IMG/VR virus record: IMGVR_UViG_2663763339_000003
Source: a virus
Taxonomy: Duplodnaviria; Heunggongvirae; Uroviricota; Caudoviricetes
DNA: 36,827 nucleotides
Strand: one strand, 5' to 3'
Of this stretch, positions 10,078 through 36,827 are shown one piece after another; the stretch's first letter is position 1, and each line of letters starts with the position of its first letter. The position numbers were made by a program, and so were the translations under genes. The notes under the pieces are model-generated. The model searched no databases. It worked only from the letters and a program-made list of their open reading frames with translations, and was not told where the DNA came from.

Positions 10078-10095
10078 TTGTACCGTTATTCACAC
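10078..10095. promoter_or_regulatory. late-promoter activator site (TGT-N12-ACA) upstream of FI
   Basis: TGTaccgttattcacACA, centre ~84 nt upstream of the FI ATG; flanking sequence resembles the site at 21738-21755. Confidence 0.5.
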
Positions 10096-10144
10096 AAAAT
10101 GACGGTATTTGTCTGCTTTCAGGGATAATCAAAATAAAGCTGAT

Positions 10145-10711
10145 TCAGGGAGATTCATTGCTCTTATTTGCCGGAAATTTTCTATAAATGGTAGAAACGC
10201 CTACATCAAAAATCAGTGCAATACGCTGTCTTGATTCTCCGGCCTCGAGTAAACGCCCAATCTGTGCCCACTGTTCGGTGGTCAACTTAGGACGGCGTCC
10301 ACCTACTCTGCCTTTGGCACGAGCTGCAGCCAGCCCTGCCCTGGTACGTTCAACTATCAGTTCGCGTTCCATTTCAGCAAGGGCACCCATGACATGAAAA
10401 AAGAAACGGCCCATTGGGGTACTGGTATCAATACTGTCAGTCAGGCTTCGGAAATTCACGCCTCGCTGACGCAACTCTTCTATCAGCGTAACAAGATGCC
10501 GCATACTGCGCCCCAACCTGTCCAGCTTCCAGACAACCAGCGTGTCTCCTGCCGATAGTGTCCTGAGCAGTTTTTTCAACCCTGGTCTGTCGGACTTAGT
10601 GCCACTGATTTTATCCTCAAAAATCCGCTCACATCCCGCGCAGTTCAGTGCATTACGTTGCAAATCAGTGTTCTGGTCATTTGTTGACACGCGTACATAG
10701 CCAATAAGCAT
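10145..10711 (-). CDS. serine DNA invertase (Hin/Gin/Pin/Cin family)
   Basis: N-terminal MLIGYVRVSTNDQ with catalytic Ser, resolvase-type core and C-terminal HTH; start taken at the internal ATG (ORF track extends to 10828). Confidence 0.9.
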   Translation of the reverse strand: MLIGYVRVSTNDQNTDLQRNALNCAGCERIFEDKISGTKSDRPGLKKLLRTLSAGDTLVVWKLDRLGRSMRHLVTLIEELRQRGVNFRSLTDSIDTSTPMGRFFFHVMGALAEMERELIVERTRAGLAAARAKGRVGGRRPKLTTEQWAQIGRLLEAGESRQRIALIFDVGVSTIYRKFPANKSNESP

Positions 10712-10765
10712 GATCACCCCCCTGAATAAAAACCGGAGATGATGCCAGTTAGCCGTTATCTCTGC

Positions 10766-10791
10766 ATTTTCATAAACGTTGGTTTGGGAGA
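10766..10791. repeat. inversion crossover site (hix/gix-like), left
   Basis: TTTTCATAAACGTTGGTTTGGGAGAA fits the 26-bp TTnTCnnAAACCnnGGTTTnnGAnAA pattern; central TT at 10778-10779. Confidence 0.65.
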
Positions 10792-11146
10792 AGCGGCAAA
10801 ACGGAATGTAGGTAACGGGCAAAACCAAATTCCGGATATGGCGGCGTTTGCCAGTTCACTTTCATCAACGGGTTTTCAAAAACTACCTTCGGGTCTGATT
10901 ATTCAGTGGGGTATTGTCAGTGGAGCATCAAACTATACGGTGACTTACCCGGTAACATTCCCAAATCGTTCACTTGCGCTGTTGGCTGTACCACATACAA
11001 CGTCGGTGGCGGGTATATCTGCAATGGGCATAGCGAACTGTTCTGATATCAGCAAATCACAGTTCTATATAATTGTTGGCGGTATATCTCAGGGAGAAAT
11101 TGTCAAATATGAAAGGTCCTGTTTTTGGGTAGCAATCGGTGTATAG
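10779..11146 (+). CDS. alternative tail-fibre C-terminal cassette (silent orientation, promoterless)
   Basis: reading frame continues from the crossover site; LGEAAKRNVGNGQNQIPDMAAF is paralogous to [22 protein letters not shown] in the expressed tail fibre. Confidence 0.7.
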
Positions 11147-11154
11147 GTATATCT

Positions 11155-11550
11155 ATGATTTATTTCTCAAAATCGACTAATGGTTTTTTCTTTGATGGTA
11201 TAAACAGCGACATGCCTGCTGACATTGTTGAGATAAGTACAGACTTATACAATGAATTAATTGCCGGACAGCAGGAAGGGGGTAAATTAATTACGTCAGA
11301 TGAAAATGGTTTACCGGTACTGAAATCCCCGGTGATTGATTATGTCGCACGTGCGGAAAATCAGCGAATGCAGTTACTTTCTCATGCCGATAATGTCACA
11401 GCTGACTGGCGAGTGGAATTAATGCTTGGTGATATTAGCAGTACAGATAAAGAAAAACTATCCGCCTGGATGTACTACAAAAAAGAAGTAAAAGCCGTCG
11501 ACACTTCGACGGCTCCTGAGATTAGCTGGCCTGAGTTACCGGAGGTGTAG
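11155..11550 (+). CDS. alternative tail-fibre assembly chaperone (silent orientation)
   Basis: MIYFSKSTNGFFFDG... N-terminus typical of Tfa/gpG-like chaperones; converges on and overlaps the expressed chaperone gene at its 3' end. Confidence 0.7.
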   Translation: MIYFSKSTNGFFFDGINSDMPADIVEISTDLYNELIAGQQEGGKLITSDENGLPVLKSPVIDYVARAENQRMQLLSHADNVTADWRVELMLGDISSTDKEKLSAWMYYKKEVKAVDTSTAPEISWPELPEV

Positions 11551-11941
11551 GCCATTCAATATCTGGCGCACCGGAAGTATCGATCAGCTCCAGTGCGTCC
11601 AGATAATCCAGCCACAAATTATATTGCGCCAGTTCCTCACCTTTCAGACGACCAATAGCTGCTTTACCAGGCCATTGTTTACTGTCCATATAATCGTTGG
11701 CCTGTTCAATAAGTATATTTTTCATTCCCTCCGCTTCAGCTATTTCCTGTTCCTGTGTCTTCGCTGGATATTCAGTAAGCACAGGGTAGTTATCCGGGCT
11801 ATTGATAATAATTTTCCCCGTACTCTGACCATTCATAAGTTCATAATAAAGAGCATCTTCAATATCGAAAGCATCATCGGGAATATCGCTGTTGTTTTCA
11901 GAGAAAAATCCCTGAACAGATGGGGACCATTTCATTTTCAT
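11522..11941 (-). CDS. tail-fibre assembly chaperone (expressed orientation)
   Basis: 139-aa ORF with ATGA overlap to the H stop; Tfa-like N-terminus. Confidence 0.8.
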
Positions 11942-13359
11942 AATTTCCCAATTCCTAAAATGTGGACATCATCAGCCTTACGGGCATTCCAGGTGACAAT
12001 TACATCGGTAGAGTGACGATTAACTGAGATTGCGTATGCTTCGTTAGTCGAGCCAGAAACTTTTGTGGCAAACACAGCAAACAGGACACCAAATGACTGG
12101 GGCCATTTATAGCCTGACAGCTGATAATTACCATTATTCAGTGTTACAGCTTTGGCTGCTGCACTTGATGGAATCGTCAGCCACTGGAGTATCAACCCTC
12201 CTGGCAAAAGTTGTTTTCCGTAATAATCCCTCACCCCACTAAATGAAACCATGTCCGGTATCTGATTTTCCCCTGTGCCCACATCCCGTTTTGCCGCCTC
12301 TCCCAAACCAAGGTATGTGAGAAGACCAGCTACATCCTTTCCACTCAAATTAGTCAGCGTATTGTCCAGCGGTTGTTTACCTGCCAGCGCATTAAGCATT
12401 GTCGTGGCAAAGTTCGGGTCATTCCCCAGCGCCGCCGCCAGTTCATTCAGTGTATCCAGTGCCGCAGGTGCAGAACCCACCATTGCCGCAATCGCCGATT
12501 TCACAAATGCCGTGGTGGCAATCTGTGTATTGTTAACCGACTGTGCCGCAGTGGGGGCTGTTGGCGTTCCGGTAAGTGCCGGACTCGACAGCGGCGCTTT
12601 CAGTGCCAGCGCATTGTTAATGGTGGTACTGAATTTCGGGTCATTGTTTATGGCTGCGGCAATTTCTTTCAGCGTATCCAGCGTGGCTGGCGCACCATTA
12701 ATCAGGGTCGTCAGTGCCGCCTGAACAAACGCGGTGGTCGCAAGTTGCGTGGTATTATTCCCCGCCACTGGCGTTGGAGCTTTGGGTGTCCCGGTAAACG
12801 TAGGACTTTCTTTCTGAGCATACTGTGAATGCGGGTCCGGTGCGGCAAGATGTTTTGCCATCTGATCATCCGCGTACACCTTCAGCTCCAGTACCTTATC
12901 ATCCACATACTTGCGGGTTGCCAGCACTACGGCAGGGTCGATTTTCAGGGTGATATTGTCCGTGCTGCTGGTAATCAACACCATACGCACGGTCTGGGTA
13001 CGCCCGCTGCCTTCAGCCAGTTGCGGCTTATAGCTTTCCGGGCAGTTGCCCACGGCAATCAATGCCCCGGACTCATCAAACAGGCCCACTTCACGTATCC
13101 ACCAACCGCCCTCGTTTTCAGGGATCACCTGTTCAGCAATAATCTGGCTGCTGTTCTGCGGGTCGATATAGAGCATATTCAGCGCAGCCCGGCGTTTCTC
13201 ATTTACTAATGCTGTCTGCTTTGCGTCCGGCGTTGGCAATGTTCCGCCGCCATCGCCTACCGCCATATGGGTAATTTTTAACGGCACACCGAGCGCGGCG
13301 GCGCTGGCAAGTTTCGCCGCGCCAATATCCGTCAGCAGGGTATAAAATTTTGTGCTCAT
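11938..13359 (-). CDS. H: tail fibre protein H (constant N-terminus fused to invertible C-terminal cassette)
   Basis: 473-aa ORF; N-terminus [18 protein letters not shown] is P2 gpH-like; the crossover site lies inside the coding sequence at the GLGEAAKR codons. Confidence 0.85.
12298..12323. repeat. inversion crossover site (hix/gix-like), right, inside H
   Basis: CTCTCCCAAACCAAGGTATGTGAGAA; its reverse complement shares GGTTTGGGAGA with the left site; central AA at 12310-12311. Confidence 0.65.
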
Positions 13360-24641: not shown

Positions 24642-25514
24642 CTACCAATTCATGCTTTCTTTTAATTCAGTTCGCGCATTTTCAACAAGTTGTACTAACT
24701 CTTTAAGACTATCAGTTAACACTTGATGACTACCTTTATTTGTTCTATATGTTAACATATTTACATTTAATGTTTTTTCAATAACAGGAACCATATCTCT
24801 ATGAATACTTTTATCAGCCATAACCATATAATGTGGTTTAACAGCATTGTGCTTGAAAAAAGCATCTTCCAGAAGAAGCCTTATATCGGGGTCATTAGCC
24901 CCACAACCTATAAATAGAAATGTATGCGTTAAACCCAAGGCATTAAGAATCTCGTAAAAATCTCTGTACTGTGATCTTGCCTTTGCATAATCACTTCTTG
25001 AAAAAATCAAGTTTGACGTATTATCAATTGTGCCGTGAATTTTCAGGATAACACGACCACTATCCTTTATTGCACTTGCAATATCACTATCAAAATAATT
25101 TTTGACACTTACCGTGCCTTCTGTTTCTTTACTAACATATGTTTCATATATTTTATCAAAATTAGGCGTTACAACAATCCTGCAATCTAATTTAAAAAGA
25201 AACTCATGTATATCTGCTTTAGCATAATGTGGATTCAAGAATGCATTTTTTGCAATTTCATCGAACCTCCCTTTAGGAAGCTTTGCCTTAATTAATTCAC
25301 AAGCAGTCAAATAATCTTCGTTTTTAATCAATCGTTTAATTTGTAGCGATGACCCAGAACTGAGTTCTGGTAAACATCCTTCAAGAAATTGTTTCCAACT
25401 TGGAGGCCGTGAATTACCTTTACCAACACTGTTCATTGAGACGCCTGCCCCCAGAAATAAAATACATTTCCGTCTCGCTAAATCGGAGACTAAGCTTTTA
25501 TCCCAATTAATCAT
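24642..25514 (-). CDS. SIR2-like (SIR2_2-type) NAD-binding protein, putative NADase effector
   Basis: 290 aa; N-terminal LFLGAGVS glycine-rich Rossmann motif, VVTPNFD (cf. TTNYD) and KIHGT motifs; ATGA overlap with the upstream ATPase gene. Confidence 0.7.
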   Translation of the reverse strand: MINWDKSLVSDLARRKCILFLGAGVSMNSVGKGNSRPPSWKQFLEGCLPELSSGSSLQIKRLIKNEDYLTACELIKAKLPKGRFDEIAKNAFLNPHYAKADIHEFLFKLDCRIVVTPNFDKIYETYVSKETEGTVSVKNYFDSDIASAIKDSGRVILKIHGTIDNTSNLIFSRSDYAKARSQYRDFYEILNALGLTHTFLFIGCGANDPDIRLLLEDAFFKHNAVKPHYMVMADKSIHRDMVPVIEKTLNVNMLTYRTNKGSHQVLTDSLKELVQLVENARTELKESMNW

Positions 25515-26518
25515 GACTCACTCGCAGCAACATTATCAAGGATACGGGAACAAATACTTTCAAAAAGCTTCTTAGCATCGTTTACTTTTGAAAAGTGCGA
25601 TCCTACTACCCCATCTTTATTTTTAAGATTAAAAATTGGAGCATTTGCTAATTGAGACAATGGAATTAAGCTATTCATATTCTCAATTTGCCCTAAATCA
25701 AAATTCATATCTTGTTTTTTTGCGTAATTATTGATTATTTCTGCTTTCATTGCCTTAGGAATTTTAAGTGCAATTTTTTCATACGCATTAACTTTTACTT
25801 TCTCTCCCCTTACTGTTTTCCCTTTATATTGTTGCATCGCATACCCAAGAAACTTCAGTCTGCACTGTAAAGATGAGCCATCGATGATAAAATCTTCACC
25901 TTCATTTTTAGTATAGTTTTTCAGGCCATCAGATACACCTTCCATCCAGGCCTTTAGCGAAAGGTTAATATTATTAAGAGCTAAAAGACTAAACATATCA
26001 ACAGACATTGGAATAATGAAATAGTCACATGATATTATTATTGCTCTATTCAATGCACCTAATGAAGGACCTACATCATATAAAATAAAATCATAGTCTT
26101 TATACATGGAGGACAGATGTGAAAAAACAAATGTTGTTTGTATACCTCGAGGTTTCCCTGCCACAGCGGGGTCCCAATCAGATGCTAAAAAATCCTCACT
26201 CAACGCTAACTTGGGATCCCCAGGAATCAAGTCAAAACCAAACCTATCAGTTTTTATTGGAACTACACGAGTAGTTGCATATCCTTTTGCCCTCCGAACT
26301 GGGGTTAAGAAATTTTCAATTGTATTTCTCTTATCAGAACCATAAAGTTCATCAAGTTTTTTCTCTCCCAAACAATAAGATGTTGTGTTGCACTGAGGAT
26401 CGGCGTCAATAACCAACACTTTTTTGTGCATCTCAAGACTAAGATAAGCACCAACATTACACAACAATGTAGTTTTGCCAACGCCACCTTTATTATTGAA
26501 AAAAACTATACTGTTCAT
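25511..26518 (-). CDS. ParA/MinD-family P-loop ATPase with C-terminal extension
   Basis: 335 aa; deviant Walker A NNKGGVGKTT at residues 8-17 and an Asp-rich Walker B-like region (VLVIDADPQ). Confidence 0.8.
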   Translation of the reverse strand: MNSIVFFNNKGGVGKTTLLCNVGAYLSLEMHKKVLVIDADPQCNTTSYCLGEKKLDELYGSDKRNTIENFLTPVRRAKGYATTRVVPIKTDRFGFDLIPGDPKLALSEDFLASDWDPAVAGKPRGIQTTFVFSHLSSMYKDYDFILYDVGPSLGALNRAIIISCDYFIIPMSVDMFSLLALNNINLSLKAWMEGVSDGLKNYTKNEGEDFIIDGSSLQCRLKFLGYAMQQYKGKTVRGEKVKVNAYEKIALKIPKAMKAEIINNYAKKQDMNFDLGQIENMNSLIPLSQLANAPIFNLKNKDGVVGSHFSKVNDAKKLFESICSRILDNVAASES

Positions 26519-26557
26519 CTATAACATTGCTCATTTTATCACTCAAATTTCCTGAGA

Positions 26558-26587
26558 TTTATACATAAGATTAATCGCAATGTCCAA
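26558..26587 (-). promoter_or_regulatory. candidate sigma70 promoter for the ParA-SIR2 operon
   Basis: minus-strand TTGGAC - 18 nt - TATAAA about 40-70 nt upstream of the ParA-like ATG. Confidence 0.3.
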
Positions 26588-26664
26588 TCAGCTTTAACAT
26601 TAATTAACACCTCTTTTAAGATTAAAATTTTGTTAAGAAATGCACTCTAGCCCCATGGCGCGCG

Positions 26665-26683
26665 CTCGTATCCCCGCCACGCC
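26665..26683 (-). other. cos-like site (cohesive end region)
   Basis: minus-strand GGCGTGGCGGGGA... resembles the start of P2/186 cohesive ends as I recall them; GC-rich island in AT-rich surroundings. Confidence 0.4.
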
Positions 26684-26723
26684 TGCCCGCTTTATGTAGT
26701 GGTTTTCATGCAGGTGCATGATC

Positions 26724-26755
26724 TACGCAAAAGCCCGCCAGAACTGGCGGGCCTT
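26724..26755 (-). terminator. rho-independent terminator downstream of the lipoprotein gene
   Basis: minus-strand hairpin gcccgccag-ttc-tggcgggc followed by TTTTG. Confidence 0.55.
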
Positions 26756-26856
26756 AACACAAAAGATCCTCAAACGATCATGCGATCTCATGCAGCATAG
26801 ACATGCGCGTTTATGCAGAATGTGCAAAATCGTAACATACTCAGTAAGCGTGAAAC

Positions 26857-27534
26857 CTAGAACGTGACAGCCTTGTCAAAGCCAGAAATAATTGTATAAG
26901 AAATAGACGAGTTATCAGCCTTGTTCACTTTGAACTTGGCACCTTTGTAAGCGATAACATCACTTCCCTTAGAATCTACAGAAAAATCTGTTGTAAATGC
27001 TGCACGAGCCATATCGTTTGCAAATTCACGATAGGTGAACTTCATTACACCGCCTGCATTTCCATTGTATTCGATAGTCTTAACCAATGAATTACTCACT
27101 CGACACAGCCCATCAGGAACACGTTTGATAGAAATTTCTGATGCAGTATAAGAAGTGCCATTTGGCGGTGATATCTCATTTTTTGCAGCATCGTAACTAA
27201 CATAATCAACATAGTTACCGATTTGCCCATAGAGATTTTTTAACGCAACAGCTTGAGGGTTATGATAATTGCGGTAAATTCCATTCCCCTCACTGCAATA
27301 TGTACCAGCAGCGATAGAAGACAATGCACCATTAGCCGCACCAAGTTCTAGTACGTCCGTTTTAAATCCAGTAGCAGATGTGATAATGGGATCGCCCATG
27401 TAGGCGGTAGCACTTTGCCCAATAGCTGGCTTCACCACTTCAATAGCAGTGATATTTCGGTTAGAAGCATGTGGCACGCAACCAGTTAGGATTACAGCAA
27501 GAGATATTGGTAACGCTACATTATTAATTTTCAT
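26857..27534 (-). CDS. lipoprotein of unknown function (cargo gene)
   Basis: start at MKINNVALPISLAVILTGC with lipobox LTGC (ORF track extends to 27588); AT-rich. Confidence 0.65.
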   Translation of the reverse strand: MKINNVALPISLAVILTGCVPHASNRNITAIEVVKPAIGQSATAYMGDPIITSATGFKTDVLELGAANGALSSIAAGTYCSEGNGIYRNYHNPQAVALKNLYGQIGNYVDYVSYDAAKNEISPPNGTSYTASEISIKRVPDGLCRVSNSLVKTIEYNGNAGGVMKFTYREFANDMARAAFTTDFSVDSKGSDVIAYKGAKFKVNKADNSSISYTIISGFDKAVTF

Positions 27535-27558
27535 TTTTAGCCTATTATTCTTTTCTTG

Positions 27559-27593
27559 ACAAAAAACAAGGCGATATCTGATTGACATCGCCT
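27559..27593 (-). terminator. rho-independent terminator downstream of the DinI-like gene
   Basis: minus-strand hairpin ggcgatgtcaatcagatatcgcc followed by TTGTTTTTTG. Confidence 0.5.
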
Positions 27594-33397: not shown

Positions 33398-33994
33398 ATG
33401 TCAACATCAAAGTACCCAAGTGAGATCAAAATAAATCCCAATAAAGGTGGTAAGGCTGCGATTGAGCGATTAGTCGAAGCTTATGGCTTTACGACACGAC
33501 AGGCTTTAGCTGATCACTTGGAAGTATCAAAAAGCACTCTGGCGAACAGGTATTTGCGGGATACGTTTCCTGCAGACTGGATAATCCAATGTGCTCTTGA
33601 AACAGGAACCTCACTGAAATGGTTAACCACCGGGCAAGGACTTAAGCAAAGCTCGCTGACAGTAGCCACAGAAGAGCTTCCCAAGTTTCGCCTTACCGCA
33701 GGCAAAATGATTGAAGATGGTTCATATGTATTCGATTCATCATTTCTTCCTGCAAATCTTTCATCACCAATTGTTATTCAGGATGGGCTTGTCACATACA
33801 TTTGTGATCAAAAATTTTCTGAAGTACTTGATGGACACTGGTTAATCAACATCGACGGAACCTATTCCATTCGAAAAATCACAAAGCTTCCAAAAGGTAT
33901 GATTAAAATTACAACTACAGAGAATAGCTTTGAATGTGCATTTTCTGATATTGAAGTGGTTGCTTGTATAAGAAGTACAATAGTTTCAAATTGA
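33398..33994 (+). CDS. cI: CI immunity repressor (186-type)
   Basis: 198-aa ORF; N-terminal HTH region resembles 186 CI (AYGF...LANRY...CALETG); divergent from apl. Confidence 0.8.
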   Translation: MSTSKYPSEIKINPNKGGKAAIERLVEAYGFTTRQALADHLEVSKSTLANRYLRDTFPADWIIQCALETGTSLKWLTTGQGLKQSSLTVATEELPKFRLTAGKMIEDGSYVFDSSFLPANLSSPIVIQDGLVTYICDQKFSEVLDGHWLINIDGTYSIRKITKLPKGMIKITTTENSFECAFSDIEVVACIRSTIVSN

Positions 33995-34014: not shown

Positions 34015-35691
34015 ATGAATTCATTTTCCATCGTTATATTCTTATTAGCATTTCTCGCCCCTGTTCTAGCTATAATATTATTTAAGCAAAGTAAAGAACA
34101 CAAAGCCGCCATAGATAACCTGACGGCTAACAACATAGCCCTTTCCAGCCAACTGAGTGAAAATCAAGAAAAGTTAGCACAGACTGCTCGAGATCTATCA
34201 GAGCTTGAAGGGCGAGCAGCACCATTATGGCAATACGAAGAATTGCACAGCGCAGTGATGGAGGCAGAGAATAAGATAAAAAATGCAGACTCAATAGCTA
34301 GGCAAAAAATAGAAGAAGCCCAAATAAAGGCAGCTAAGACAGTAAACGAAGCAAGTTATCAAGCTCAGATAACAATAAGCAACGCTAATAGCGAAGCTAT
34401 AGCAATCACCAAAGACGCTCGCGATGCACGCCTGAAAGCCAAAGAACGTCTTGATAATGCCAACAGTAAAGCAAATGAGCTGATCTCAAATGCTAATGAC
34501 AACGCAGTAAAAATTATTTCCGATGCAGAAGAAAGAGCAAAAGAGATTGCTGGTTCAGCATATGAAGCTAAAGAGTTTGCAGAAAAATATGAAGCAGTTG
34601 CCAAATCAATGAAAAATAAAATTGAAGGTTATGGCGATGAATGGATCATCCCTAACCGTAGTGTACTTGATGAATTGGCAGAAAATTATGAGTTTACAGA
34701 TGCAGGCAAGGAATTACAAAAAGCCAGGGAGTTAACAAAATCATTAATAAAAACTAATAAAGCAGCTTCGTGTGATTATGTTGAGCAAAACAGGCGTAAT
34801 ACTGCTATCAACTTTGTTTTGGATGCCTTCAATGGAAGAGTTGACAGTATTTTATCAAAAGTCAAACACAACAATTTTGGAAAACTTTCCCAAGAAATAA
34901 AAGATGCATTTCAACTTGTAAATTATAATGGCTCTGCTTTTAGATCCGCAAAAATAAGTGACATCTATCTTCAGGCACGACTCAACGAGCTAAAATGGGG
35001 AGTTGCAGTTAATGAAATTATGCTCGAAGAAAAAGAGGAGCAAAGAAGGATTAAAGAACAACTTCGTGAAGAGGAAAGAGCTCGTAGAGAGTATGAAAAA
35101 GCGATAAAAGAAGCCGAAAAAGAAGAGAAAGCTATTCAGCAAGCTATAAATAAAGCAACGAAAGAGCTTATGCTTGCAAATGAAGAACAACGCTTAGCTT
35201 TAGAGCAAAAAATAGCTGAACTACAGTTAAAATATGAAGAAGCTGAAGCTAAAAACCAACGAGCTATTTCTATGGCTCAACAAACTAGATCAGGCCATGT
35301 TTATATAATTAGCAATATTGGCTCATTTGGCGAAGATGTATATAAAATTGGAATGACACGCCGCCTTGAACCACTTGATCGTGTTCGTGAACTTGGGGAT
35401 GCTAGTGTTCCTTTTTCGTTCGATGTTCATGCGATGATTTATAGTGATGATGCACCGTCATTAGAAAATCATCTGCATAAAGTCTTCAACGAAAAGCAGG
35501 TCAATAAAATTAACTCACGAAAAGAGTTTTTTAACGTAAATATTAAAGAAATTAAATCGGTTATTGAAGATATGAACATCAATGCCCACTGGACAATGTT
35601 TGCAGAGGCGAAAGAATATAGAGAGTCACTAGCTATTGAGCAGGAACGCAAAGCAGCCACTTCCGCCAACGATGAACTACATGTTGCTTAG
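34015..35691 (+). CDS. membrane-anchored coiled-coil protein with C-terminal T5orf172 (GIY-YIG-like) domain, cargo gene
   Basis: 558 aa; N-terminal TM helix (FSIVIFLLAFLAPVLAIILF), Ala/Glu/Lys-rich coiled coil, C-terminal GHVYIISN...YKIGMTRRLEPLDRVREL motif block; 20 nt after the cI stop. Confidence 0.55.
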   Translation: MNSFSIVIFLLAFLAPVLAIILFKQSKEHKAAIDNLTANNIALSSQLSENQEKLAQTARDLSELEGRAAPLWQYEELHSAVMEAENKIKNADSIARQKIEEAQIKAAKTVNEASYQAQITISNANSEAIAITKDARDARLKAKERLDNANSKANELISNANDNAVKIISDAEERAKEIAGSAYEAKEFAEKYEAVAKSMKNKIEGYGDEWIIPNRSVLDELAENYEFTDAGKELQKARELTKSLIKTNKAASCDYVEQNRRNTAINFVLDAFNGRVDSILSKVKHNNFGKLSQEIKDAFQLVNYNGSAFRSAKISDIYLQARLNELKWGVAVNEIMLEEKEEQRRIKEQLREEERARREYEKAIKEAEKEEKAIQQAINKATKELMLANEEQRLALEQKIAELQLKYEEAEAKNQRAISMAQQTRSGHVYIISNIGSFGEDVYKIGMTRRLEPLDRVRELGDASVPFSFDVHAMIYSDDAPSLENHLHKVFNEKQVNKINSRKEFFNVNIKEIKSVIEDMNINAHWTMFAEAKEYRESLAIEQERKAATSANDELHVA

Positions 35692-35774: not shown

Positions 35775-36827
35775 ATGGCAGTACGAAAACTCACCACAGG
35801 AAAATGGCTTTGCGAATGTTACCCCGCCGGACGTAGTGGACGTCGTGTGCGTAAACAATTCGCCACCAAAGGCGAAGCACTGGCTTTTGAGCGTCACACG
35901 ATGGAAGAAACCGAAGCAAAGCCCTGGCTAGGTGAATCAGTGGATCGTCGAACACTGAAAGACGTGGTTGAGCTATGGTTCAAACTACATGGTAAATCAC
36001 TGACAGCTGGGCAGCATGTCTATGACAAATTGCTGCTGATGGTTGACGCTCTGGGCAATCCCCTTGCAACTGATCTAACCTCTAAAATGTTTGCCCACTA
36101 TCGAGATAAACGCCTGACAGGTGAGATCTACTTCAGCGAGAAATGGAAGAAAGGAGCAAGCCCGGTCACCATTAACCTGGAGCAAAGCTATCTAAGTAGT
36201 GTTTTTAGCGAACTATCCCGCCTGGGCGAATGGTCGTATCCGAACCCACTGGAGAACATGCGAAAATTCACCATCGCAGAAAAAGAGATGGCATGGCTTA
36301 CCCATGAGCAGATTGTTGAATTACTGGCTGATTGCAAACGTCAGGACCCAATTCTGGCACTGGTAGTTAAGATATGCTTAAGCACAGGCGCACGCTGGCG
36401 AGAAGCCGTAAATCTTACTCGTTCACAGGTGACCAAATACCGAATTACCTTTGTAAGAACGAAGGGGAAGAAAAACAGAAGCATCCCTATCAGTAAAGAG
36501 CTTTACGAAGAGATCATGGCGCTTGATGGGTTCAATTTCTTCACAGACTGCTATTTTCAATTTTTATCCGTGATGGAAAAAACGTCTATCGTGCTCCCTC
36601 GCGGTCAACTCACACACGTTCTGCGCCATACGTTTGCGGCACACTTCATGATGTCGGGTGGAAACATTCTGGCCTTACAAAAAATTCTCGGACACCACGA
36701 TATAAAAATGACTATGCGTTACGCACATCTGGCACCGGATCATCTGGAAACGGCGCTCCGTTTCAATCCTCTGGCAACGCTGCCAAGTGGCGACAAAGTG
36801 GCGGCAGCGGTTGGCATTACCCCGTAA
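35775..36827 (+). CDS. int: tyrosine integrase (P2/186 family)
   Basis: 350-aa ORF with C-terminal R...HxxR...Y catalytic motif region (VLRHTFAAHF...MTMRYAHL); the att core repeat lies in the last codons. Confidence 0.9.
   Translation: MAVRKLTTGKWLCECYPAGRSGRRVRKQFATKGEALAFERHTMEETEAKPWLGESVDRRTLKDVVELWFKLHGKSLTAGQHVYDKLLLMVDALGNPLATDLTSKMFAHYRDKRLTGEIYFSEKWKKGASPVTINLEQSYLSSVFSELSRLGEWSYPNPLENMRKFTIAEKEMAWLTHEQIVELLADCKRQDPILALVVKICLSTGARWREAVNLTRSQVTKYRITFVRTKGKKNRSIPISKELYEEIMALDGFNFFTDCYFQFLSVMEKTSIVLPRGQLTHVLRHTFAAHFMMSGGNILALQKILGHHDIKMTMRYAHLAPDHLETALRFNPLATLPSGDKVAAAVGITP
36788..36809. repeat. att core copy (int-proximal prophage junction)
   Basis: tggcgacaaagtggcggcagcg, 21/22 identical to 2834-2855. 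Confidence 0.6.

Follow-up and report, generated by a model that had tools for sequence, protein, structure and literature searches.

We describe a site-specific inversion switch of Gin/Cin/Pin type within the tail-fibre operon of an Escherichia coli prophage that resembles Fels-2 and 186, a reading to which we assign a probability of about 0.9. The window (the whole 36,827-nt stretch of DNA that was analysed) is, judging from its sequence, an E. coli prophage of P2/Fels-2 type, with a Fels-2/186-like backbone that belongs to the P2 family (Peduoviridae). The RefSeq annotation of a 99.9%-identical copy shows the P2 late gene order and hallmark proteins, namely ogr/Delta, D, U, T, E/E′, FII, FI, H, I, J, W and V, together with capsid, terminase and portal proteins and with CI, CII, Fil and Int. 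Pfam searches of the window itself detect Tail_P2_I and sheath domains. In the region of the module, the window is 97% identical to phage Cartapus, which is already deposited with its invertase annotated. Cartapus is a phage of the Crohn's-associated strain LF82; it produces virions, and no indicator strain was found for it (PMC9928086). Since the order in P2 is H, G, terminator, fun(Z), pF, FI, with the invertase absent, the invertase/fibre module takes the place of fun(Z). This comparison of gene orders upholds the earlier note on this DNA, which had put the module in place of the P2 Z/fun locus and had set it apart from prototype P2 with its fixed H/G genes.

The module contains one complete fibre gene and a second, parked end for it. 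The full tail-fibre gene in its present state (11938–13359, minus strand) encodes 473 amino acids and holds the right crossover site. Its constant N-terminal part, a homologue of P2 gpH comprising residues 1–350 (12310–13359, minus strand), contains a Phage_tail_fib domain over residues 1–150 (E = 3e-65) and shares 81% DNA identity with Fels-2 H. The expressed variable C terminus, tip A (123 amino acids; 11938–12309, minus strand), matches PHROG 2557 (E = 3e-34) and gives a sub-threshold hit to Gp53-like_C (E = 0.0025). The parked C terminus, tip B (121 amino acids; 10781–11146, plus strand), is currently unexpressed and matches both Gp53-like_C (E = 2e-15) and PHROG 2557 (E = 7e-35). The tips therefore fall into one PHROG; both open with GLGEAAKR, and they are 63% identical over their first 43 residues and completely divergent after that.

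Each tip is paired with a gene for a tail-fibre assembly chaperone. Chaperone A, which is expressed (139 amino acids; 11522–11941, minus strand; Pfam Caudo_TAP, E = 1e-21), is 47% identical to TfaP of e14, and the parked chaperone B (131 amino acids; 11155–11550, plus strand; Caudo_TAP, E = 2e-23; PHROG 188) is 31% identical to chaperone A. The two genes are convergent, with 3′ ends that overlap by 29 bp. A second C terminus with the same junction peptide and a second, converging chaperone gene had been noticed before, and both are present at the positions given here. Inverting the segment in silico exchanges tip A and chaperone A for tip B and chaperone B, and the new fusion is in frame, giving a fibre of 471 amino acids. 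Sequence searches against solved structures weakly matched tip B to PDB 4MTM (E = 7e-5) and chaperone B to Mu U (PDB 5YVQ, E = 0.009); they returned no match for tip A or chaperone A, and they allowed no assignment of a receptor to either tip.

The segment is bounded by two 26-bp crossover sites that are inverted relative to each other and have the central dinucleotide TT/AA in common. In a symmetric 12+2+12 register, the invertase-proximal site lies at 10767–10792 (TTTTCATAAACG TT GGTTTGGGAGAA; core 10779–10780) and the fibre-gene site at 12298–12323 (CTCTCCCAAACC AA GGTATGTGAGAA; core 12310–12311), with a 1,529-bp segment between the cores. The right site had been given these same coordinates earlier; the left one, put at 10766–10791, was one base off. 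The sites belong to an inverted repeat of 75 nt (10767–10841 versus 12249–12323) that is 80% complementary. The fibre-side core forms positions 2–3 of the Leu350 codon, directly before GLGEAAKR (residues 351–358), so the right site does lie at the GLGEAAKR codons of the expressed fibre gene, as first reported.

A scan of both strands of the 36.8-kb window with a 20-position consensus (threshold 15), drawn partly from the window's own sites, returned only these two sites; with mononucleotide-shuffled sequence it made 5 hits over 30 shuffles. Applied to Mu (the G boundaries), P1 (cixL/cixR), e14 and Fels-2, it recovers exactly their curated or annotated sites, which supports the consensus independently. 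With their matching cores, the two candidate sites fit the gix/cix/pix pattern, and the original comparison with hix, gix and cix holds. The invertase-proximal site equals the pinE-proximal site of e14 at all 26 bp. In the inner half of the fibre-side site, the outermost base is C and not T; a functional e14 site has the same base.

The gene next to the segment (10145–10711, minus strand) encodes a 188-amino-acid DNA invertase, a small serine recombinase, which confirms that a serine invertase adjoins the fibre segment. The invertible segment does not include this gene, whose 5′ end points toward it. The protein is within the 180–195 or so amino acids usual for such invertases, contains the Pfam domains Resolvase (N-terminal and catalytic; E = 2e-53) and HTH_7 (C-terminal; E = 1e-15), matches PHROG 125, ‘DNA invertase’ (E = 9e-101), and is 74% identical to Mu Gin, 84% to e14 PinE and 84% to Fels-2 Fin. 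It aligns without gaps to the Gin structure PDB 3UJ3 over 184 residues (E = 8e-93), and Y5, R7, S9 (the nucleophilic serine), R42, D64, R65 and R68 are the same in the window invertase, Gin and PinE. The residues that are uniquely conserved among Fis/enhancer-dependent invertases are, in Hin, the basic K47, R/K48 and R/K51 of helix B, and Q151, R154 and L155 of helix 1 of the DNA-binding domain (PMC3798978). The equivalents of Hin K47/R48/K51 and Q151/R154/L155 are kept in the window invertase as K46/K47/R50 and Q150/R153/L154, numbered as in Gin (Hin minus 1). By these sequence features, the recombinase is assigned to the Gin/Cin/Pin/Hin (Din) subfamily.

A 227-amino-acid open reading frame (ORF) starting at 10828 was rejected as the mechanical longest ORF; the true start is ATG 10711, in agreement with how RefSeq annotates 99.9%-identical genomes. 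A sigma-70 scan found no convincing promoter for the invertase. Between the crossover site and the invertase start codon, TGGCAT(C/G)AT is invariant in the window, e14, Mu and Fels-2, and we conjecture that it may be an extended −10 element.

A putative recombinational (Fis) enhancer lies inside the invertase gene at 10622–10693, or gene nt 19–90. The assignment draws on homology to P1, in whose record cin nt 19–90 is curated as the ‘enhancer of Cin-mediated C-segment inversion’; the window matches this region at 57 of 72 positions (79%). Fis-like motifs with a spacing of 48 bp, centred on gene nt 30 and 78, occur at the same positions in the window invertase gene, pinE, gin and fin, and are weak, with 2–3 mismatches each to a degenerate consensus. 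The strict Fis consensus GNNYAWWWWWTRNNC has zero matches in the whole window, and a relaxed one yields many weak candidates there. A second Fis-like pair with 48-bp spacing, at nt 90/138, also turns up under the relaxed consensus, so the motif test does not discriminate. An enhancer at this second pair was favoured first and was dropped because the curated P1 enhancer covers cin nt 19–90, which fits the pair at nt 30/78.

From this arrangement we infer the reaction chemistry, its dependence on Fis and a change of host range as its outcome. Invertase dimers would bind the two inverted 26-bp sites, and Fis would occupy the enhancer in the 5′ part of the invertase gene. Both sites would be cut at the central TT/AA and the strands exchanged by subunit rotation, inverting the 1,529 bp between the cores. 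With the outer site in fibre codon 350, the constant 350-residue N terminus, expressed from the late V operon, would be joined either to tip A (123 amino acids, the present state) or to tip B (121 amino acids), and the cognate chaperone gene would stand directly downstream in either state. Given these two alternative fusions, a lysogen population would release virions with two fibre tips, most likely with two receptor specificities; the switching of receptor specificity that the earlier note proposed would be a probable consequence.

The two states may differ in how transcription ends. A consensus scan detected a terminator-like hairpin, with a 12-bp stem and a T-run behind it (11490–11517, minus strand), just past the stop codon of chaperone A, and the same scan found no counterpart for the flipped state. 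It is conceivable, and in our view unlikely, that the switch is asymmetric and coupled to transcription, with this strong intrinsic terminator (11517–11490 in the direction of reading) standing only behind chaperone A in the A orientation and with read-through to the invertase in the B state. Late transcripts in the B state could then cross the parked cassette in antisense and continue into the invertase gene, which points the same way as they do, and hence the invertase level and the switching rate would depend on the fibre state.

The inversion proposed here is seen in natural genomes, which contain both orientations. Contiguous full-length matches of 3.4 kb in complete E. coli genomes have the window arrangement in 13 cases and the flipped one in 6; the junctions, counted among complete E. 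coli genomes, are fibre-to-A in 23 and fibre-to-B in 50. Over 15.4 kb, isolates N17 and N24 differ only by one single-nucleotide polymorphism and an exact inversion, the outer exchange limit of which is at the core dinucleotide. The Combat13F7 assembly holds the same chromosomal region of a sibling prophage twice, 99.8% identical and with the segment in opposite orientations. Moreover, the invertase protein of the window matches, at 100% identity, the allele that the unflipped LF82 and GPEC709 and the flipped FDAARGOS_1372 and G3 carry. The presence of both orientations in close relatives with an identical invertase allele supports the switching that the earlier note had proposed. The segment inverts in these relatives, and the window itself is one sequence in one orientation. 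The flipped relatives are 96–97% identical to the window, and the genomes that are 99.9% identical to it are in the window's orientation in 5 of 5 cases.

This last count could also be read as the mark of a prophage that has the right anatomy and no longer inverts, through site polymorphism or poor invertase expression, so that its fibre is fixed in the A state. Such a frozen state would further agree with the outermost base at which the fibre-side inner half-site differs from the other inner half, and with the result of the sigma-70-type scan, which no invertase promoter passed. We nevertheless regard it as very unlikely. The full-length invertase matches, at 100% identity, an allele present with both orientations, the cores of the two sites match, and the deviating base is also found in a functional e14 site. 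Furthermore, with about 68% of relatives unflipped (13/19), finding 6 of 6 unflipped has a chance probability of about 10%.

Less likely again is that the switch serves mainly the lysogen, with fibre fragments at the cell surface blocking the adsorption of other phages. Such a role has been described for the e14 P segment, by StfE2 after PinQ-mediated inversion (PMC12529663). In the window, a start codon beyond the segment boundary (ATG 10739/10742), with GGAG upstream, opens an ORF that runs across the proximal site into either tip, depending on which one is parked, and is annotated by PGAP. However, the prophage has a full set of P2-type genes for structure, lysis and replication, its 97%-identical relative Cartapus makes virions (PMC9928086), neither state disrupts the fibre gene, and a scan detected no promoter for the parked ORF. 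As a separate possibility, by analogy with StfE2 of e14, lysogens may express the parked tip from this ORF, to act as a decoy at the surface.

The exchange point was placed in a 26–27-bp interval that begins at the core, and is not resolved to the dinucleotide; narrowing it below 26 bp by means of arm polymorphisms did not succeed, since the two arms agree over 24 bp inside the core in every flipped relative. Homologous recombination by RecA between the 75-bp inverted repeats, in place of the invertase, is the least probable source of the inversions: the arms of the N17/N24 lineage are indeed perfectly identical over 26–27 bp, within which the exchange point is not resolvable, but this stretch is at the lower limit for efficient RecA recombination, inversion has recurred in several lineages and within one culture, an intact, conserved invertase and canonical sites are adjacent, and the outer exchange limit is the core in each flipped genome that was examined.

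Ever since Mu, P1 and e14, fibre segments that Din invertases turn round have belonged to textbook knowledge, and our finding adds nothing new in principle. Nor is the arrangement new for P2-family phages; it is already documented in Fels-2 (Fin) and in P2-like prophages of enteropathogenic E. coli (EPEC). In practice, annotation pipelines name the parked tip as a gene of its own (‘gp53-like domain-containing protein’ or ‘hypothetical protein’), and an assembler can report the other orientation as an additional, artefactual replicon, such as pCombat13F7-1. For phages of this group that have no known indicator strain, Cartapus being an example, both fibre states are relevant to host-range tests.

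The likeness to the Mu G, P1 C and e14 P segments that was pointed out earlier is found in the annotated records, whose layout matches that of the window. In Mu, P1 and e14 alike, a constant fibre N terminus is followed by a variable C terminus and chaperone, which face a second chaperone and C terminus, and then by the invertase. Fels-2 of Salmonella Typhimurium LT2 shares with the window both the backbone and the order FI sheath, invertase, parked H′ C terminus, G′, G, H, I; its Fin is 84% identical, the constant part of H is 81% identical at the DNA level, and its 26-bp (fix) sites are at the same two positions. It differs in having a segment of about 2.7 kb, compared with 1.5 kb here, a TC/GA core in place of TT/AA, long tips (the parked H′ ORF has 359 amino acids) that are unrelated to those of the window save for 33% identity to tip B, and chaperone genes without overlap. 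A passage in PMC3535392, citing Kutsukake 2006, reports Fin and the 2.7-kb invertible segment of Fels-2.

The cryptic prophage e14 of E. coli K-12 (PinE; P segment stfP-tfaP / tfaE-stfE) has the TT/AA core in common with the window, along with the 84%-identical invertase, the proximal site (26/26 bp), convergent chaperone genes that overlap by 29 bp, and TfaP, 47% identical to chaperone A. The P segment inverts experimentally (PMC4272514). Unlike the window, which is an apparently complete P2-family prophage with an intact 473-amino-acid fibre, e14 is a defective lambdoid element in which the fibre gene is a remnant, and its fibre tips have no detectable similarity to those of the window. In Mu G and P1 C, too, the constant part of the fibre meets the variable part at a conserved (Y/N)LGL motif, whose Leu codon holds the core; two cassettes, each a tip with its chaperone, point toward one another, and the invertase, with its internal enhancer, is outside. 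Their segments are longer, however (3–4.2 kb, with long variable parts), and the phage backbones are unrelated; moreover, Mu has the core TC/GA, and in P1 the 3′ end of cin points toward the segment.

By their published description, the P2-like prophages of EPEC E2348/69 are similar, with an invertase and inverted repeats that give rise to alternative fibre C termini, and coexisting orientations were found at these loci by sequencing and PCR (Goldberg et al. 2014, PMC4272514). One of these loci has three repeats and four variants (PMC4272514), whereas the window has only two sites. Prototype P2 shares the late order V W J I H G ... FI FII E T U D, but has neither an invertase nor a second cassette, and its G–FI interval holds fun(Z). 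At the corresponding codons of its H gene, IEYLGLQE, a relic gix-like sequence is present.

This is an ordinary Din-type invertible tail-fibre module, of a kind already on record, in a Fels-2-like prophage; Din denotes the Gin/Cin/Pin/Hin subfamily of small serine recombinases. The observation in the earlier note is confirmed, and its interpretation, a switch by which the prophage could alternate between two receptor specificities, is supported. All features between 10145 and 13359 were verified against the raw sequence and the ORF list. ORFs, Pfam domains and sequence agree on a serine invertase gene (10145-10711, minus strand, 188 aa, Pfam Resolvase and HTH_7) beside a segment with inverted 26-bp sites, a 55-bp spacer separating the gene from the proximal site. 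The fibre-side site was correctly placed at 12298-12323, within the fibre gene; the proximal site lies at 10767-10792, one base from where it had been put. The fibre gene itself (11938-13359, minus strand, 473 aa, residues 1-150 matching Pfam Phage_tail_fib) is directly followed by the gene for chaperone A (11522-11941, minus strand, 139 aa, Pfam Caudo_TAP). The second fibre C-terminus and second chaperone gene reported within the segment are present as plus-strand ORFs: the parked tip B (10781-11146, opening with an 11-residue stretch, Pfam Gp53-like_C) and chaperone B (11155-11550, 131 aa, Pfam Caudo_TAP). G+C content is 43.6% in the invertible segment and 54.4% in the constant region of the fibre gene, a difference that exchangeable cassettes would be expected to show.

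The recombinase shares 74% identity with Mu Gin and 84% with both e14 PinE and Fels-2 Fin, aligns gap-free with the sequences of the Gin crystal structures (E=8e-93) and retains the catalytic Ser9 with its neighbouring Tyr and Arg residues. Residues exclusive to Fis/enhancer-dependent invertases are, in Hin numbering, K47, R/K48 and R/K51 of helix B and Q151, R154 and L155 of the DNA-binding domain (McLean et al., PMC3798978); all six are found here, as K46, K47, R50, Q150, R153 and L154. In the curated P1 record the Cin enhancer spans cin nt 19-90, and 10622-10693 is homologous to that stretch (57/72 identical). This putative enhancer has weak Fis-like motifs at gene nt 30 and 78, with centres 48 bp apart, as do gin, pinE and fin. 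Because the motif is degenerate and a second, equally spaced pair lies farther downstream, we grade the enhancer as plausible on homology and keep it as putative. In the otherwise non-conserved spacer that leads from the crossover site to the start codon of the invertase, an alignment shows the motif TGGCAT(C/G)AT (window region 10731-10760) unchanged across the window, e14, Mu and Fels-2; it may serve the invertase promoter as an extended -10 element.

The crossover sites sit in the arms of a 75-nt inverted repeat (80% complementarity in a repeat search) and, in a symmetric 12+2+12 register, read TTTTCATAAACG-TT-GGTTTGGGAGAA and CTCTCCCAAACC-AA-GGTATGTGAGAA; they are mutually inverted and have the same central dinucleotide. 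When every 26-mer of the window was scored on both strands against the 20-position consensus TTCTCNNAAACCNNGGTTTNNGAGAA, only these two reached the threshold of at least 15 (18 each; next best 13), and 30 mononucleotide shuffles gave five matches altogether; the consensus derives partly from the sites themselves, and the independent check is its performance on other systems. The identical scan returned exactly two sites in each of the Mu, P1, e14 and Fels-2 loci, coinciding in Mu with the annotated G-segment boundaries and in P1 exactly with the curated cixL and cixR, where the curated crossover is the central dinucleotide in the register used here. The window and e14 have the same proximal site, base for base, and PinQ acts in trans on the e14 segment (PMC12529663); other Din invertases of the same cell could thus also flip the segment, which would supplement the action of the adjacent invertase and not replace it.

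As the earlier note had it, the fibre-side site falls at the GLGEAAKR codons: its core occupies positions 2-3 of the Leu350 codon, directly ahead of them. In-silico inversion of 10781-12309 puts the plus-strand C-terminus in frame behind fibre residues 1-350, giving a 471-aa fibre directly followed by chaperone B. Tip B (121 aa) and tip A, the 123-aa C-terminus now joined to the fibre, are 63% identical over their first 43 residues, with no detectable similarity beyond. Both belong to PHROG 2557 (E ~1e-34). For tip B there are also matches to Gp53-like_C and PDB 4MTM; the match of tip A to Gp53-like_C is below threshold. The two chaperones are 31% identical. Host-range switching would be the expected consequence of inversion. 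A role in host defence, by analogy with e14 StfE2, is conceivable but finds no support here.

An ATG at 10739/10742, preceded by GGAG and outside the invertible segment, opens an ORF (10739-11146, plus strand) that runs through the proximal site and on into the tip parked there at the time; according to orientation, RefSeq calls it 'gp53-like domain-containing protein' or 'hypothetical protein', and it is probably an annotation artefact. A strong terminator-like hairpin (11490-11517, minus strand; 12-bp stem, then a T-run) directly follows the chaperone A gene, within the 3′ end of parked chaperone B. No equivalent was found for the flipped state, so late-operon termination may depend on orientation.

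Both orientations occur in nature. Five complete E. coli genomes are 99.9% identical to the window in this region, and phage Cartapus (strain LF82) is 97% identical. A constructed flipped sequence, used as query, aligned in one unbroken piece of 3,381 bp to six complete genomes (96-97% identity); the window's arrangement is found at full length in 13. With 301-bp junction queries, 23 genomes proved to carry the fibre-to-A fusion and 50 the fibre-to-B fusion. Isolates N17 and N24, from the same source type, with chromosome sizes 723 bp apart and the prophage in the same position, differ across 15.4 kb only by one SNP and the exact inversion. The 45-kb 'plasmid' pCombat13F7-1 (NZ_CP019246.1) duplicates the ybjL-prophage region of the Combat13F7 chromosome (NZ_CP019245.1) at 99.8% identity, with the fibre segment in the opposite orientation; on the simplest reading, the two copies reflect a mixed population within one sequenced culture. 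This record, which holds the chromosomal genes rimK, nfsA, grxA, ybjM and ybjL, is most likely a redundant contig from that culture and not a replicon.

All flipped genomes examined retain the non-identical outer half-sites where they were, with only the inner sequences exchanged, which sets the outer limit of exchange at the core dinucleotide; the inner limit lies 24 bp inward of the core, at the first difference between the arms. Within these 26-27 bp of identity the comparative data are formally compatible with RecA-mediated exchange, but the inversion recurs and an intact invertase adjoins, making this route unlikely. That this exact molecule no longer inverts is very improbable: 5/5 near-identical genomes are in its orientation, but the invertase protein (100% identical to the allele in unflipped LF82 and GPEC709 and flipped FDAARGOS_1372 and G3) and the sites are intact, and the sole site polymorphism, in which the inner half-site has C as its outermost base, is present in a functional e14 site.

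Invertase-driven switching of this kind has precedents. Fels-2 carries Fin and a 2.7-kb invertible fragment, with cross-complementation of Hin (Kutsukake et al. 2006, as related in PMC3535392), and coexisting orientations were detected by sequencing and PCR in two P2-like prophages of EPEC, and also in e14 (Goldberg et al., PMC4272514). Cartapus has been called Fels-2-like, with no mention of an invertase or inversion, and no indicator strain was found for it (PMC9928086). From this literature, the kind of element, its position in the phage lineage and its activity are all on record. Particular to this copy is its pair of short gp53-like tips, and these too are widespread among sequenced E. 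coli.

The RefSeq annotation of a 99.9%-identical copy describes a complete P2-family prophage beside ybjL, whose ogr/Delta, CII, Fil and DinI-like genes identify it as 186/Fels-2-like. Gene order in the Fels-2 record matches the window (sheath, invertase, parked H′ C-terminus, G′, G, H, I). In prototype P2, H and G are followed by a terminator, fun(Z) on the other strand, the pF promoter and FI. Measured against P2, the invertase and the parked cassettes thus take the place of fun(Z), as had been proposed. P2, which lacks the invertase, carries in gene H (L006:858-883, our P2 locus) a relic gix-like 26-mer, TTATCGAATATCTCGGTTTACAGGAA, with 15/20 consensus positions, at the IEYLGLQE codons, the position of the crossover site in the window and Mu. 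Just downstream of the invertase gene, ~85 bp before the sheath gene begins, lies a TGT-N12-ACA dyad (10079-10096) that has an equivalent at the same position in Fels-2; it is likely the site through which Ogr/Delta activates the late F promoter.

Elsewhere in the prophage, a 558-aa gene (34015-35691, plus strand) between the CI repressor (33398-33994) and integrase (35775-36827) genes matches the anti-phage system PD-Lambda-1 (PADLOC E=7e-120; Pfam DUF4041 and T5orf172/MUG113) and appears to be a defence moron sited at the prophage's immunity end. A moron cassette (24642-27588, minus strand), between the portal and replication genes, encodes a SIR2_2-domain protein (24642-25514) with weak PADLOC matches to ThsA, LmuA and Dsr SIR2 modules, a ParA/AAA_31-type ATPase (25511-26518) and a 243-aa protein (26857-27588) for which Pfam gave no match; it may be an uncharacterised SIR2-based defence pair. 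The same slot holds AIPR and ComF in sibling prophage 30EVA1 and a retron St85 reverse transcriptase in Combat13F7.
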